From the NCBI GenBank assembly GCA_000004985.1, contig GG738897.1: a stretch of 64,000 nucleotides of DNA; one strand, given 5' to 3'. This DNA is from Naegleria gruberi. Its lineage: Eukaryota. Numbering within the stretch: the first letter of the stretch is position 1; each line of letters begins with the position of its first letter. The translations under genes and the position numbers were made by a program. This document shows, in pieces, positions 54,644-63,861 of the stretch. The notes beneath the pieces are model-generated. The model was not told the origin of the DNA. It did not search any database and saw nothing but the letters and a program-made list of their open reading frames with translations.

Positions 54644-55528
54644 TTATTTCTTTTCCCACAATGAAGCTCTATCTTTCATCTTTAGTCTACCTTCTTCCAA
54701 TTTCTTCTTTTCCTCATCTTCTTGTTGTTTCTTCTTTTGTGCCAACAATTGTTCTCCACTTGGATTTTTCAATGCCTTTCTCTTTGCAGCATTAAGTGTC
54801 ATTTCTAATTTGTTCATTTCAGTTTGATCTTGAGATTGCATTTGTGCCAATTCATTCTTTGCTTGTAAACCCTTAACACCAACCAAATCTGATTTTTCTT
54901 CCAAATCTTTTAAACGATTTTCACGAGCACGTTTTTGTGCATAAAATTCAGAAATGGCATTTTCTAATTCTTCGGATAAACCTGCTGGCATTTCGAATAA
55001 TTCTTCCAAGAGAGCATAACCAACTCCTGTGATACCAATGGATTGATTGTCGAGGTAACCAGCTGGTACAGATAATTCAGTGTGTCTCTTGTAATATTCG
55101 GAGAGAATTAAATGTTTGTAGTGGAGTAATAAATATTCAATGAAAGCAATGAGTTTGTTAAAATCCAAGTCAATATCACGAATTTCATCACGTCTTTGGG
55201 TGGCTGTACGTGTTTTACCATTCTTTTGTAAGAAATCGGCAGCTTGGGCTATTTAGCATCACATTACAAATAGTTTAATATATTCGAAAGTGTTAAAAAT
55301 ATTATTAGAAACTAAACACTTACCTTCATCCAATTCATTTTGAGAACCTTCTCTATTAGAATCAGCCAAATACTTTTTAAAAGTTGTGGAAAGTTTAACA
55401 ACTTCTGGCCAATCATCACCCAAAGCAAAGATGAAACTCTTCAAGAAGAATTCACATTGTTCATCGATGGATTTAGCAACGAGATCTTGGAATCTGAGGG
55501 CAAGTTTTGGATCGACTTGGTTTGACAT
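54644..55528 (-). CDS. 34-kDa calcium-regulated actin-bundling protein (ABP34) homolog (2 exons: 55528..55324, 55248..54644)
   Basis: FNKLIAFIEYLLLHYK aligns to Dictyostelium ABP34 DGRVSFLEYLLYQYK. LVGVKGLQAKNELAQM aligns to IPGVKGLGATNMLAQI. The N-terminal CEFFLKSFIFALGDDWPEV region matches too. Intron 55323..55249 (GTAAGT...aaatag) restores the frame. Confidence 0.65.
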
Positions 55529-56964: not shown

Positions 56965-59133
56965 ATGTCAAAAGTTGAATCTGTTGTTTGTATTACACTC
57001 ACAGATTTCCTAGAGAATGAATTGTATCATCAATTAAAAAACAAATTCTCATCACAAACGAAAGGTTTCGTATTGTGGGAATTAAACAAGGAAATTAGTT
57101 TGAAAGAAAAACAATTTCTTCCGATAGAATATTCTAAAGACAAGGAATACATTCAGAAATGTGCAAAAATTTGTGCTTCTCTCGATTATAGAAACAATCA
57201 ATTTTATAGCACATATCTTGTTAGCTCAATTTATCCGAAATTATTATTGGAAAGTTCAGACGAATTACAGAAATACAAATTGAGTGGTATTAAAAAATAT
57301 GCTGATCACCATTCGAATATTAAAAAAACAATGATTTACAATACGAATCCAGAAACTAGAGAGCTAGTTTTGCAAGCTGTCAAGAAAAATGGAAATGATT
57401 TGATGAAATATCAAAAATTTAATTCGGATAGAGAAATTGTTATTGCAGCAATTAGACAGAATGGAAATGGATTATTCTATGCTGGAGTGGAATTGAGAAA
57501 TGACAGAGAGGTAGTGAGAGAATCAATGAAGGTCAACCAGCATACTTTCTATTACATGTCTGATGAGTTGAAGAAGGATAGATCACTAGCTCTGGAAGCT
57601 GTCAAGGAAATTCCAGGATCTATCAGATATGCTCCTGGTGAAATCAAGAATGATAGATCGTTTATAGTGGAAGCTGCTTTATTGAATGGAAAAGTGTTGC
57701 AATTTCTAGATGGAGAATTTTTGAAGGACAGAGAAATTGTGGAGAATGCTGTATCTCAATACGGGTATGCTATTAAATATGCGCCAGAGGAATTTCAAAG
57801 AGATGAATCATTAATGCTAGGTGTTATTAGAAAGGCACTCAGTTTGGATTCAACAGTAGAAGTTTCTGACGATTTGATTTTGAAATATGTTAAAGAGCAT
57901 AATGGTGGATATTTGGCAATTAAATTGGAAAGATGTTGTAATGTAAAAGAAGTTATATTGGGAGCATTGGAGAATAATGGATCTAGATTGAATGAAAATA
58001 ACAAGAGAGAAAGAGAATTCATCTTGGACATGTTGAAAGAAAATTGGGAAATATTCGAAAAGGCAGACGAAAATATCAAGAATGAAAAGCAAGTCTATAC
58101 AAAAGCATTTGGTTTAAATTGTACATTTCTTGAAGATTCCTATAATTCCGAGCTATTCAATGAAATTTTAAATTACAGAAAGAAGATTCTTGACAGCTCT
58201 CCAGTTGGTAAGATCGACAAGGAAATTGCAAGCAAAATTGTGCACCAGAATTTTAATATTTTGAAAGAATGGAATATCACCAGATTAGATGATCAAATTC
58301 ATGAATACTTACACCATTTCAGCAGTGACAGAGATTTCGTGCTACAAGCAGTTTATCTAGATGAGAAATATCTTTCATTTGCTAGTGATTCATTGAAAGA
58401 TGATTTTGATTTCATGGTGACAATTGCACAACATACCCGTAACATGAGAGATGCATCTCCTCGTTTGAAATCAGATCCTCAATTTATCTTACGAGCATTG
58501 GATTATCTTTATGAATTGAAAGCTCCAAAGGAATTGAGAGCTGATAGAGATTTCATGATGAAAGCAGTTCAGAAAGGAACACATCTCTATCACGCCTCTG
58601 ATGATTTAAAGAACGATAAGGAGTTAGTACTCACAGCCATTAAAGGCAGCTACTCGAACATTTCACATGCTAGTAAGGGTCTTCAAAAGGACAGAGAATT
58701 TATTATTGAAGTTTTGAAAATTGATGGAAATTGTTTGAAATATTTGTCAAAGTCTTTCAAAAATGATAGAGAGCTAATTTTGACAGCTGCTCAATCTATC
58801 AATCCTTACATTGATTATGAGTTGTGTTATGAGCTATTTCCAACGGACAGAGAAGTAATGATGGAGTGTACCAAACAATATGGATACGAAATGATTCCTT
58901 ACAATAGCTATCTTAGTGATGAGTTTCGTTTTGATAAGGAATTCATGTTTCAAATTGCTGCTTCAAATAATTCAGCAACTTTGGATGTGTTTGATATATT
59001 TGGAAATGATAAGGATTTAATAATGAGATTGGCACTTGTTTATGGGCTTGTTCAAAAGTTTGATGAAGATATTTATCGAAAGAGAATAGAATTGGTCTTC
59101 AATGGAGTCAAATTACCAACAGATAAATACTAA
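56965..59133 (+). CDS. DUF4116-type repeat protein
   Basis: 722-aa ORF with about 12 tandem repeats of roughly 36 aa built on [KN]DRE[FILV]V..AV..NG..L.YA (NDREVVRESMKVN, KDRSLALEAVKEIPGSIRYAP, NDRSFIVEAALLNGKVLQFLD, KDREIVENAVSQYGYAIKYAP...). Confidence 0.6.
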   Translation: MSKVESVVCITLTDFLENELYHQLKNKFSSQTKGFVLWELNKEISLKEKQFLPIEYSKDKEYIQKCAKICASLDYRNNQFYSTYLVSSIYPKLLLESSDELQKYKLSGIKKYADHHSNIKKTMIYNTNPETRELVLQAVKKNGNDLMKYQKFNSDREIVIAAIRQNGNGLFYAGVELRNDREVVRESMKVNQHTFYYMSDELKKDRSLALEAVKEIPGSIRYAPGEIKNDRSFIVEAALLNGKVLQFLDGEFLKDREIVENAVSQYGYAIKYAPEEFQRDESLMLGVIRKALSLDSTVEVSDDLILKYVKEHNGGYLAIKLERCCNVKEVILGALENNGSRLNENNKREREFILDMLKENWEIFEKADENIKNEKQVYTKAFGLNCTFLEDSYNSELFNEILNYRKKILDSSPVGKIDKEIASKIVHQNFNILKEWNITRLDDQIHEYLHHFSSDRDFVLQAVYLDEKYLSFASDSLKDDFDFMVTIAQHTRNMRDASPRLKSDPQFILRALDYLYELKAPKELRADRDFMMKAVQKGTHLYHASDDLKNDKELVLTAIKGSYSNISHASKGLQKDREFIIEVLKIDGNCLKYLSKSFKNDRELILTAAQSINPYIDYELCYELFPTDREVMMECTKQYGYEMIPYNSYLSDEFRFDKEFMFQIAASNNSATLDVFDIFGNDKDLIMRLALVYGLVQKFDEDIYRKRIELVFNGVKLPTDKY

Positions 59134-60341: not shown

Positions 60342-61972
60342 TTAAACCATGATATCTCCCTCCCTACGTTTCTTAACTTGTTCAATTGAATTTTCATTTG
60401 GGTCTTTTTTAATGAGTTCAGTAGTGTCCTCCATTTCAGTCTCGTCATCATCTTCATCTTCCTCCTGGATTGGGAAATGGGTAGAACTCACTTGTTGAAC
60501 TGTTACAGTCTTCATTTCTTGTTCAGATTCAGTGTACATGAAATAGGTCACACTCAACAAGACAATAATGCAACCCAATAATTGCCAAATTGACTTTAGC
60601 GATTCTTGCAAAATGAGACTACTGAAAACAATTGTTGAGATTAATCTCAAGGCAATTATAGAGCCAACTTTTGTAGATCCAAGCAAACCAATTGCAAGAA
60701 TATTTAAACCATTGGCCATCATGTATACTAAAATAGTAAATCCAAAGAACATGCCCCAATCCTTAGAATTCAATCGAGCCCACAAAGTCCAATCATCAAA
60801 TATTGCACTTGGCACAGCAAATATAAAGACAAGAATTAATAATTGATAAATGAATAGTTTCTCTCCAGTAACACTAATGGTATTTCCCTGAGATTCTTCC
60901 TGTTTCATATATCTCAAAGAGAGCATGTACCAAACAAGACAACAACTTGAAACTATACTTGATGAGATACCTAATACATCCCATGGTGTAATATTTTCAG
61001 AAATGGTATTAAAATCAATCTCAATTGTGATTTCAGTACATACACACCATCAGTTTTTGGAACAATACTTCCAATAATTATAATAGCCCCTCCTATAAAT
61101 GTAGCAATCATTGACAAGATTGCTTTCAATCCAAATGTTTCCTTAGTATGTGAATCTCTAATAAACCATCTGTTATAAACAAATACTGTTACAAAAGCCA
61201 GAGTAAATGGACTTGACAATGCAAACAATTGAACAAATAGTGGAATTGTAAATTTGGAGGCAACAACATTGGTAAATGATCTCCCCAACAATGCACAAAA
61301 GAAGCTAATGAGAGGTAATGAGAATTTAATCCACTTCTTAATCCTCTCGAATATAGACAATTTCATTACAACATGATGTTGAGTATTAACATTCATTCCT
61401 TCCTTGTTATTCTTCCTATTCTTCCACTTATTCCTCAAATAAACAATTAACAAGAAGAGAATTCTGGGAGAGTATAATAGAAGGGCAGCCATATGACAGC
61501 TAGTAACCAATAGCATGGGAGGAAACTTATTTGGAGATTGAGATTGCAGATACCTCGAAAAGATTGGATGTGTACCATAAAGTGTATGTACTGAAATACA
61601 TGCTAACCAACCCAACATTGATTTGAGTATGGGCATTGAATCTATTAGATTTGAAACTCTAGAAGTGAGAGATTGCTTCTCCCTCTCTTGATCTCCGTAA
61701 GAAGAAGAATTAGTGGATGTTATAATATTATCTTGTTCATCTTGCTTATGATGATAATGATGAACATAATCAATTGTATCATGATTCTCCTCCGATGATG
61801 AATTATTTAAAGCTTCATGTCCATTCTCCTTGCCTAATTCATACTGTTGTTGTGAAGGTGGTTTTCTTACTTGCAGCACCGACACTTCATCATTTTCAAC
61901 AACTGTTGTTGTGCTTATTAATAGTGATGATGATTCTTCGAGTGAATGTTCTAACAGTTGTTGCTTCGACAT
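60342..61972 (-). CDS. drug/metabolite transporter (DMT/EamA-like) superfamily membrane protein, 2 exons
   Basis: About 10 TM helices. The track ORFs 60971..61972 and 60342..60926 are offset by two frames. They are joined either by a 77-nt intron (GTGTGT at 61047 ... tattag, exon 2 from 60970) or an 86-nt intron (GTATGT at 61043 ... tcaag, exon 2 from 60957). Both restore the frame. Confidence 0.5.
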
Positions 61973-62133: not shown

Positions 62134-63861
62134 TTATTTCTTTTGCATAAGCATGTTATTTGACTTGATAAAGAAATCACCCTTATCGAATAACTTTAAA
62201 AGAATGACCAGAGTTTCCTTATCAATTTCGAAATTTCTCTCTGCCTCATCATTCATCATATTGGCACCATGATAATTTTCAGTGGCAAAGATGGAATCAA
62301 TATTGACATTGAGCAATGTTGAAACTTGCTCAATAACTTGTTTTTTGGTTTCTTGTTCTCTCACTTCATCCATCTTGGTAACAATCACCAATGGTTGATA
62401 TCCATATCCAAGAGATTCTTGATACATCTTCTTGAGCTTTTCAATGAGCTCTTTATCACCACGATCACCCTGAGCAAGGAAAAACAAGATACAGTGTACT
62501 TGATTTTCATCACACTTTTCAATTTGCTTTGTCATGATGGATTCACTCATCTCAAATGATTCTCCGAGAAGTCCACGTAACCAACTTAGGAACAGGGTTG
62601 GCTCAGTGAAGGTCTTTTCTGAAATTCCAAAAGAATCACCCAATAGGAAAAACAAATTGCACAATGTTTCATCTTCAGGAAAGATCTTGGAGAAGCATAC
62701 CTTTTCAAGACGTTTGGTAACATGATCACCTCCAGGAGCTGTAATTGCGAATGATGTGTGCTTGTTTTGTATAAAGGTTAATCCATGTACTAATGTGACA
62801 ATACGGTTGAAAAAGGATGATTTTCCAGATCCAATAATACCAAATGAGAAGATGTACAATTTTGAAACCTTACTTGATTTAGGTGGTCTATATTCTAGCA
62901 CTTTATAGCCAAAATCACTTGCCCAAAACTCAACATGACCCTTTTCGATAATACTAGAAGAGGGAGTTGTGATGGAATATTCTAATTCCTTGCAAATATC
63001 CCTAACAGTTGCACCATCTTTTGGATATAGCTCAATTTCAAAAGTTGCACTCGATTCAGGGTCAACACCAGACTTGGTTTTGAAAGTCTTACTATCGAAA
63101 TACGAGTTTCTATTAAATTTGATTACGGTCCCTGCTGGGATTTCCTTATCTGAATCATTTATGATTGTAACCATGATTTTTACATTCTCACCAATATGAT
63201 AGGGTCTGTTTTTGAGTGTAAACTTGATTCTAACAAAATCCTCATACTCTTTAGAAACAATTTCAGCTAAAGTTTCATTCAATTTGGACCATTCTTGGAT
63301 GTGGTAACCCTTTTGTGGTGAGATGGTTTGGATAAATGATTTGTCTATACCAGAGCCAACACCGATACAGCAAATGTCAACGTTGGCCAGCTTTAAATCA
63401 TTGGCGCGATTAATAGCTTCAATCTTGTCATCTGGAAAACCGTCAGTAAAGACGAAGAGGAACTTTCTTCTCTTATCTGTCATTTCATTCTTGATAATGA
63501 TCAGAGCTTCATTGAAGGCACCACCTAAATTGGTTCCTCCTCCAAGATTAGCAGTTCTAACCTTTGGCACTTTCTCAAGGATTGTATCCAAGTCAGAACA
63601 AACTCTTGCATGAACTGCACACTTGGAACTGAATTCAATAATGGTGAATTGATTGTCTTTGTTTTGTTCATGTAATTGTTTTACAACACCTCTGGTAGTG
63701 GAAAACATTTGACAGCAACTATCATCCTTCATAGAAGGAGAAGTATCCCCTAATATACCAACATGAACTGCTTCATGAGTCTTATCTGTTTTCTTTTTCA
63801 TTGGTCTGTCCCTCTTGGTTGAATCATTTTCTGAATATTCCACACGGTCTTTAGTATACAT
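62134..63861 (-). CDS. vWA (von Willebrand factor A) domain fused to P-loop GTPase domain
   Basis: N-terminal vWA region with MIDAS-like GDTSPSM and VFTDGFPDD. C-terminal GTPase motifs: G1 GIIGSGKSS, G3 LLGDSFG, G4 IVTKMDEV. Single 575-aa ORF from ATG. Confidence 0.6.
   Translation of the reverse strand: MYTKDRVEYSENDSTKRDRPMKKKTDKTHEAVHVGILGDTSPSMKDDSCCQMFSTTRGVVKQLHEQNKDNQFTIIEFSSKCAVHARVCSDLDTILEKVPKVRTANLGGGTNLGGAFNEALIIIKNEMTDKRRKFLFVFTDGFPDDKIEAINRANDLKLANVDICCIGVGSGIDKSFIQTISPQKGYHIQEWSKLNETLAEIVSKEYEDFVRIKFTLKNRPYHIGENVKIMVTIINDSDKEIPAGTVIKFNRNSYFDSKTFKTKSGVDPESSATFEIELYPKDGATVRDICKELEYSITTPSSSIIEKGHVEFWASDFGYKVLEYRPPKSSKVSKLYIFSFGIIGSGKSSFFNRIVTLVHGLTFIQNKHTSFAITAPGGDHVTKRLEKVCFSKIFPEDETLCNLFFLLGDSFGISEKTFTEPTLFLSWLRGLLGESFEMSESIMTKQIEKCDENQVHCILFFLAQGDRGDKELIEKLKKMYQESLGYGYQPLVIVTKMDEVREQETKKQVIEQVSTLLNVNIDSIFATENYHGANMMNDEAERNFEIDKETLVILLKLFDKGDFFIKSNNMLMQKK

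Follow-up and report, generated by a model that had tools for sequence, protein, structure and literature searches.

The interferon-stimulated genes IFI44 and IFI44L are among those induced most consistently in humans and are widely used as biomarkers. The septin-superclass GTPases, i.e. septins, GIMAPs and Toc proteins, become active when they dimerise across the G interface in a nucleotide-dependent manner, and they use the threonine of switch I; von Willebrand factor A (vWA) domains with a metal ion-dependent adhesion site (MIDAS) hold a protein ligand by one of its acidic side chains via a bound divalent cation. Here, we analyse a gene of Naegleria gruberi whose predicted product brings such elements together: The open reading frame (ORF) at positions 62134 to 63861 on the minus strand of a 64,000-nucleotide stretch of contig GG738897.1 (assembly GCA_000004985.1; this stretch is the window throughout) encodes an N-terminal vWA domain with a complete MIDAS, a central beta-sandwich, and a C-terminal G domain; we assign the latter to the septin superclass, and its nearest named family is IFI44/IFI44L.

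The role of the GTP-binding site of IFI44/IFI44L is disputed (PMC7459546). In the literature searched, the only GTPase-vWA fusion family already described was cpRAS-VWA (CPRas; Elias and Novotny 2008), which also occurs in N. gruberi. CPRas is scattered over Excavata, Amoebozoa and Opisthokonta; the proteins of 840-970 amino acids (aa) have an N-terminal circularly permuted Ras domain (motif order G3-G4-G5-G1-G2) with a zinc finger and, further downstream, the vWA domain, labelled 'Sec23/24 trunk' in Pfam, and the Naegleria CPRas ends in a RING domain (PMC2430557). In contrast, the protein studied here has an N-terminal vWA domain with a full MIDAS and a G domain of the septin/IFI44 class with its motifs in canonical order (residues 341, 382, 409 and 495), and we have therefore rejected identity with cpRAS-VWA. 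Since the domain order is opposite, the motif order canonical and the class of GTPase another, the two families represent independent GTPase-vWA fusions.

The homology to IFI44/IFI44L extends over the whole length of the G domain and includes the P-loop GxxGxGKSSF, the switch-I threonine, DxxG, 'IHCV(V/L)F', T(K)xD and NY. Moreover, both are cytosolic proteins with a non-catalytic N-terminal module ahead of the G domain; this module is a TLDc domain in IFI44/IFI44L, whereas it is a vWA domain plus beta-sandwich in the Naegleria protein. To our knowledge, interferon does not exist in Naegleria. With the septins, the protein shares G1, the switch-I threonine, G3, the 'HC-LYF'-type strand after switch II and an xKxD-type G4, and SEPT3, SEPT9, SEPT12 and Cdc10 are the best relatives of the family profile among solved structures; in contrast to septins and GIMAPs, the vWA-GTPase family has specific HVT, DxWG and NY motifs, and we know of no septin or GIMAP fused to a vWA domain and a beta-sandwich. 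The extracellular ANTXR2/CMG2 and the integrin beta-I plus hybrid pair possess signal peptides and transmembrane segments, whereas the Naegleria protein has neither and continues into a GTPase. The best match to the PADLOC models of prokaryotic defence was not significant (E=0.006, 13.9 bits) and nothing in NCBIfam exceeded the cutoffs for the query; we have therefore rejected a connection with the defence systems known from prokaryotes. We found no description of the vWA-IFI44-like GTPase architecture in the literature searched, which leaves most subscription journals outside its coverage so that a prior description is possible. The initial annotation of the locus did not recognise a well-characterised family.

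Gene and domain architecture

The ORF starts with the ATG at 63861 and ends with the stop codon at 62134-62136; its predicted product has a mass of about 65.4 kDa and a pI of 6.1. At the local composition (34% G+C) a stop is expected every 14 codons or so, and a frame would stay open for 575 codons with a probability of about 1.5e-19; on the plus strand, the interval is riddled with stops. The deduced protein is identical to the NCBI/UniRef entry 'predicted protein [Naegleria gruberi]' (100% identity, 100% coverage), i.e. the ORF equals the annotated, predicted intronless gene model, and a 572-aa orthologue from a public sequencing run is collinear with it at 63% identity from end to end. No paralogue of the gene is present elsewhere in the window. 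The 575-aa protein contains no signal peptide or transmembrane segment (maximum Kyte-Doolittle value in a 19-residue window 1.02, hydrophilic N-terminus), and it is predicted to be soluble and cytosolic. A secreted adhesin was rejected on the same grounds. The gene, its predicted domains and the MIDAS motifs are as follows:

62134-63861, minus strand: complete single-exon coding sequence, 575 aa plus stop (ORF list and identity to the NCBI model)
63244-63774, minus strand: vWA domain, aa ~30-206 (Pfam VWA)
63733-63747, minus strand: MIDAS DxSxS, D39-T-S41-P-S43 in GDTSPSM, aa 38-44 (read from the sequence)
63526-63543, minus strand: GGGTNL loop with the MIDAS residue Thr110 (Thr in 27 of 32 family members)
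63439-63453, minus strand: strand end VFTDG, aa 137-141, with the MIDAS residue Asp140 (Asp in 28 of 32)
62896-63243, minus strand: beta-sandwich, Ig-/arrestin-C-like, aa ~207-322 (AlphaFold2 (AF2) model and domain profile)
62137-62889, minus strand: predicted septin-superclass, IFI44-type G domain, aa ~325-575 (family profile, BLASTP and IFI44L profile)

The N-terminal domain has the Rossmann-like alpha/beta fold of vWA domains and is matched by Pfam PF00092 over aa 36-196 (E=8.9e-17; 62.3 bits, cutoff 23.8; profile positions 4-170 of 174) as well as by VWA_2 and VWA_3. Its MIDAS is complete: D39, S41, S43, T110 and D140 are each conserved in 27-30 of the 32 vWA domains of the family, with the first three kept in 29, 30 and 28 members, respectively. 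These counts come from a vWA hidden Markov model (HMM) built without the tandem-GTPase IFI44L-like sequences, which had misaligned under the vWA columns. As the five positions are conserved across very distant taxa, the complete MIDAS argues for a predicted working metal-dependent ligand-binding site. In the structure search, the ligand-binding vWA domains of ANTXR2, collagen VI and VWF A3 ranked above those of the Rpn10, TFIIH-p44 and Sec23/24 type. The vWA half of the query also matches an Hsp70-vWA fusion from a public sequencing run (P0003, 686 aa, PF00012 and PF00092; E=1.5e-6), which, by its domain content, likewise appears to combine a nucleotide-driven module with a MIDAS vWA domain.

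The middle domain of about 115 residues comprises about seven beta strands and is modelled with a predicted local distance difference test (pLDDT) score above 90 by AF2. In 89 of the 153 sequences that we collected, the HMM of this domain detects it right before the GTPase. Pfam gave only sub-threshold matches (ASH, E=0.0045; Arrestin_C, E=0.015), and the beta-sandwich profile found nothing significant among the solved structures of the PDB (arrestin C-domain, E=0.06; ILRUN, 0.87). The top structural matches, ANTXR2 with vWA and Ig domains and the integrin beta-I plus hybrid pair, extend beyond the vWA domain.

The initial annotation had placed an ORF of no stated strand at exactly these coordinates and had read from it an N-terminal vWA domain joined to a C-terminal P-loop GTPase. 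The motifs on which it relied (GDTSPSM, VFTDG, GIIGSGKSS, DSFG and TKMD) are all present in the translation, the vWA domain with its full MIDAS is borne out by the significant Pfam match, and G1, G3 and G4 occur in order and are conserved throughout the family. Of the two-domain plan, both ends hold, but the beta-sandwich between them (aa ~207-322) had been overlooked.

Motifs and family placement of the G domain

The G domain carries the motifs of a TRAFAC GTPase in canonical order, i.e. G1 (341), the switch-I residue T382, G3 (409) and G4 (495). The elements are listed here with their conservation in 131 aligned G domains:

62815-62841, minus strand: G1/P-loop GIIGSGKSS, aa 341-349 (G341, G344, K347 and S/T348 near-invariant)
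62713-62727, minus strand: switch I DHVTK, aa 379-383, with Thr382 (T382 in 127, H380 in 110)
62626-62637, minus strand: G3 DSFG, aa 409-412, family consensus DxWG (D409 in 130, G412 in 131)
62479-62499, minus strand: VHCILFF strand, aa 455-461, corresponding to the septin-like 'RVHCCLYFI' element (H456 in 111)
62368-62379, minus strand: G4 TKMD, aa 495-498, the guanine-specificity motif (T495 in 92, with Ser in another 20; D498 in 110)
62272-62280, minus strand: ENY, aa 528-530, family-specific NY after beta6 in the G5 region (N529 in 114, Y530 in 118)
62140-62232, minus strand: long C-terminal helix, aa 544-574, starting with a conserved (I)D(K/R) (AF2; D547 in 114)

K347 of G1 is found in 128 and G430 in all 131 of these domains, and switch I is invariant in a smaller alignment of 36 domains. 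The residue at position 496 of G4 varies (K in 45, R in 33, H in 17), with the Naegleria copy having the canonical TKMD. The VHCILFF strand aligns with 'NRVQCCLYFIAPSGHG' of septin-7 and with septin-3. In the AF2 model, which rests on an alignment of 60 sequences (an alignment of two sequences gave a pLDDT of 33), the secondary-structure elements follow the order b1/P-loop-a1-b2-b3-a2-b4-a3-b5-a4-b6-a5 of a canonical G domain.

Neither the query nor its C-terminal half has a significant Pfam GTPase match: The best ones for the C-terminal half, to GTP_EFTU with E=0.033 and to RsgA with E=0.063, lie around TKMD, and a phmmer search of this half against the PDB gave septin-7 as the best, non-significant match (E=0.3). 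The assignment as a GTPase was therefore based on family profiles. These required an exhaustive search, as word-indexed homology searches returned only four proteins with the G-domain profile and three with the full protein. A search of 1.84 billion representative proteins by phmmer, with aa 201-575 as the query, yielded 141 homologues with E<1e-3, 35 of them with E<1e-10. When 60 of the 141 homologues were compared with Pfam, 28 matched VWA, 25 RsgA_GTPase, 22 MMR_HSR1, 22 Septin, nine AIG1 and eight IIGP. A profile of 36 G domains matched septin-3, -9 and -12 and Cdc10 in the PDB (E=7e-12 to 1e-8, profile positions 9-208 of 231) and, more weakly, GIMAP4 (3.8e-5) and Toc34 (1.3e-4). The septin alignments stop at about position 208, ahead of the terminal helix of the family, and the query itself has no match to Septin (PF00735) at E<=10 and none to AIG1 (PF04548). 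The match of the family profile thus supports a probable kinship at the level of the superclass rather than membership among the septins.

The link to IFI44/IFI44L emerged from the same set of homologues, which includes tandem-GTPase proteins of mussel, fish and lizard; the cluster of the fish protein contains the NCBI entry 'interferon-induced protein 44-like'. A search with the fish IFI44L-like protein retrieved more than 1000 relatives, and most of the matches listed bear the name IFI44 or IFI44L and have TLDc (PF07534) and a G domain, including a mammalian IFI44. In BLASTP, the Naegleria G domain matches the fish IFI44L-like protein P0148 with E=1e-15 (29% identity over 231 residues), Danio IFI44L with 1.9e-10 and Tupaia IFI44 with 7e-9; in the whole-library phmmer search, the IFI44L-like representatives scored between 2.8e-11 and 1.3e-8. 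Finally, an HMM made from 79 canonical fish IFI44L sequences only aligns with aa 323-530 of the query (30.2 bits, profile positions 185-402). With this HMM, true IFI44-type proteins reach at least 326 bits, whereas the protist group with vWA- or beta-sandwich-linked G domains reaches at most 78 bits. Because of this gap, and also since Pfam detects no TLDc in the query although canonical IFI44/IFI44L carry it, we conclude that the predicted IFI44-type G domain puts the Naegleria protein in a sister subfamily and not among the IFI44 orthologues. The septin superclass is thus the probable home of the G domain, with IFI44/IFI44L as its nearest named family.

Distribution and domain shuffling

Among the 153 collected sequences, 37 have the vWA-beta-GTPase architecture, 52 have beta-sandwich and GTPase, and 52 have the G domain only; many are encoded on contigs of only a few kb, and some of the shorter forms may therefore be truncated versions of the full one. 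The full architecture occurs in Heterolobosea (Naegleria, Pharyngomonas), in Amoebozoa (Phalansterium, Pelomyxa, Physarum, Acytostelium), in Opisthokonta (the aphelid Amoeboaphelidium) and in Archaeplastida (the glaucophyte Cyanophora), i.e. this predicted domain order recurs in at least four eukaryotic supergroups. The fusion is seen in genome models of Acytostelium, Pelomyxa, Amoeboaphelidium and Cyanophora; it is not an artefact of assembly, since Pharyngomonas, Physarum and Phalansterium have it in complete transcriptome ORFs.

The initial annotation had left the GTPase half to profile comparisons and had named the septin and AIG1/GIMAP families as well as the phylogenetic distribution of the fusion as points of interest. 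For the query alone, the comparison fails at the level of Pfam, but it succeeds with the family profile, which finds the septins; this profile supports septins and AIG1/GIMAP as superclass kin, with no model of either matching the query. The distribution comprises Heterolobosea, Amoebozoa, an aphelid and a glaucophyte.

Several relatives carry further C-terminal domains on the vWA-beta-GTPase or beta-GTPase core: a U-box in Cyanophora (P0072), a second vWA domain and a protein kinase in Pelomyxa (P0083), and SH3, SAM and double zinc ribbon domains, the latter with a coiled coil, in P0088, P0079, P0110, P0005 and P0020. In animals, IFI44-type G domains are also found two or three times in tandem in proteins that lack TLDc (fish, lizards, mussel) and, in fish, fused to Ig-like or BED domains (vertebrate and mollusc proteins P0034, P0148, P0052, P0032, P0172-P0175 and P0202). 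As the additions vary in protists and as the vertebrate G domain pairs with TLDc, Ig, BED or itself, the predicted IFI44-type G domain behaves as a mobile module on interchangeable binding and output domains.

One full-length vWA-beta-GTPase homologue (P0121, 581 aa) is encoded at L003:10001-11746 (also L002) on contig Ga0645779_00308 of the JGI metagenome 3300076002. This contig of 372,196 bp has 82% coding density and 42.8% G+C, and most of its genes have no Pfam match. The neighbours of the homologue include an Eco47II-type restriction enzyme beside a DNA methylase, a T5orf172+SAP protein, RING, SWIB and PUB proteins and a P-type cation ATPase, and the palindromic motif TGTTATCGATAA is repeated in several intergenic regions. 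The contig resembles a giant virus (Nucleocytoviricota) or a large mobile genome of some other kind; the 21.7 kb that were read contain no hallmark gene of nucleocytoplasmic large DNA viruses, and a search of viral contigs with P0121 found no related loci.

Possible function and alternative explanations

We lean slightly towards the idea that the gene encodes a soluble three-domain protein in which a GTP-dependent dimerising switch is coupled to the MIDAS-mediated capture of a protein ligand. (i) The G domain would bind and hydrolyse GTP and act as a dimerising or oligomerising switch, by analogy to septins and GIMAPs. (ii) This switch would be coupled to the vWA domain, which would capture a protein ligand in a Mg2+-dependent manner. 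(iii) The beta-sandwich may serve as a rigid connector or as a second binding surface. The individual parts differ in strength: the domain assignments are very likely, real binding of GTP is probable, and the coupling of the switch to dimerisation, drawn from the related GTPases, is a possibility that falls a little short of probable. An output domain is absent from the Naegleria protein; the U-box, kinase, SH3, SAM and zinc ribbon domains appended in its relatives suggest a signalling or adaptor scaffold.

Several observations weigh against a GTP-driven switch: Pfam does not recognise a GTPase in the query alone, the lysine of G4 is variable in the family, and IFI44/IFI44L are reported to restrict respiratory syncytial virus (RSV) without need of their predicted GTP-binding region (PMC7459546). 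The last point also weakens the idea that the protein acts in defence against intracellular parasites or viruses, which we regard as unlikely, albeit worth bearing in mind: the sole grounds for it are the kinship with IFI44/IFI44L, the modular shuffling and the single homologue on the giant virus-like contig.

A wider version of the defence idea would make the vWA-beta-GTPases ancient pan-eukaryotic cytosolic sensors of innate immunity: the vWA domain would capture a pathogen or viral protein, the G domain would oligomerise to signal or to restrict, and the GTPase of IFI44/IFI44L would descend from these proteins, with TLDc later replacing vWA domain and beta-sandwich. The recombination of the G domain with TLDc, Ig, BED, vWA, U-box, kinase, SAM and SH3 domains, the patchy distribution and the homologue on the giant virus-like contig fit this scenario without proving it, and we consider it quite unlikely.

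It is very unlikely that the protein forms a septin-like scaffold of the cytoskeleton or the membrane, in which the G domain would polymerise into filaments and the vWA domain would anchor cargo or cortex proteins. That septins are the best matches of the family profile among solved structures, that the septin-like 'VHCxLFF' strand is present and that Pfam Septin matches 22 of 60 relatives would speak for such filaments; yet the query itself has no such match and is far closer to an IFI44L-like protein (E=1e-15) than to septin-7 (phmmer, E=0.3), the septin alignment of the profile ends before the terminal helix of the family, and the additional domains of the family members are signalling domains and not the coiled coils of septins.

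The points listed above against the preferred switch, i.e. the missing Pfam match of the query, the variable G4 lysine and the antiviral activity of IFI44/IFI44L without need of the predicted GTP-binding region (PMC7459546), would be accounted for if the protein were a pseudo-GTPase or a non-guanine NTPase, with a P-loop that is only structural or binds ATP, and thus a passive vWA adaptor. We give this little chance: G1, the switch-I threonine, DxxG and TKMD are all canonical in the Naegleria protein, and K347, T382, D409, G412 and D498 are strongly conserved in 131 domains from distant taxa, as would not be expected for a dead site.

There is just as little to recommend a GTPase-regulated adaptor in ubiquitin/proteostasis or trafficking. 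The combination of vWA domain and beta-sandwich does resemble Rpn10, TFIIH-p44 and the trunk and sandwich of Sec23/24, but these are generic matches to the vWA fold that rank below ANTXR2, collagen VI and VWF A3, and the U-box is one among several appended domains. An artefact of gene model or assembly that joins two genes, or a secreted vWA adhesin extended by mistake, has practically no weight: apart from the automatic annotation nothing points to it, whereas the frame is uninterrupted, the domain order recurs in 37 sequences including complete transcriptome ORFs, the 63%-identical orthologue is collinear from end to end, and signal peptide and transmembrane segments are absent.

Significance

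Taken as predicted from sequence, the architecture is new and built around a known, mechanistically obscure G domain, and it provides a well-defined lead with a putative function. The analysis shows the probable IFI44-type G domain to be a septin-superclass module older than animals and offers an evolutionary frame in which this domain is a modular switch on interchangeable binding domains. The small, soluble and intronless proteins of Naegleria, Physarum and the dictyostelids may serve as experimental models for it. Moreover, with this family beside cpRAS-VWA there are two independent GTPase-vWA fusions, suggesting that eukaryotes have repeatedly linked a nucleotide switch with a MIDAS clamp.

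Neighbouring genes in the window

The neighbouring genes of the DUF4116, ABP34 and EamA types fit an origin from the nuclear genome of N. gruberi. The ORF at 56965-59133 (plus strand, 722 aa) consists almost entirely of DUF4116 repeats, with 13 matched stretches (Pfam E=2e-106). At 54644-55168 (minus strand), an ORF of 174 aa is matched by PF18060 (E=2e-29), the 'F-actin bundling C-terminal' domain of the Dictyostelium ABP34 type; the first exon of this gene may be an ORF of 89 aa that lies shortly upstream of it (55259-55528, minus strand). Immediately downstream of the vWA-GTPase gene, the adjacent ORFs at 60342-60926 and 60971-61972 (both minus strand), the downstream one of which matches EamA (E=4e-7), look like one membrane transporter gene: the stop codon of the upstream ORF is directly followed by GTATCT...CAAG, consistent with an intron of about 40-50 nucleotides.

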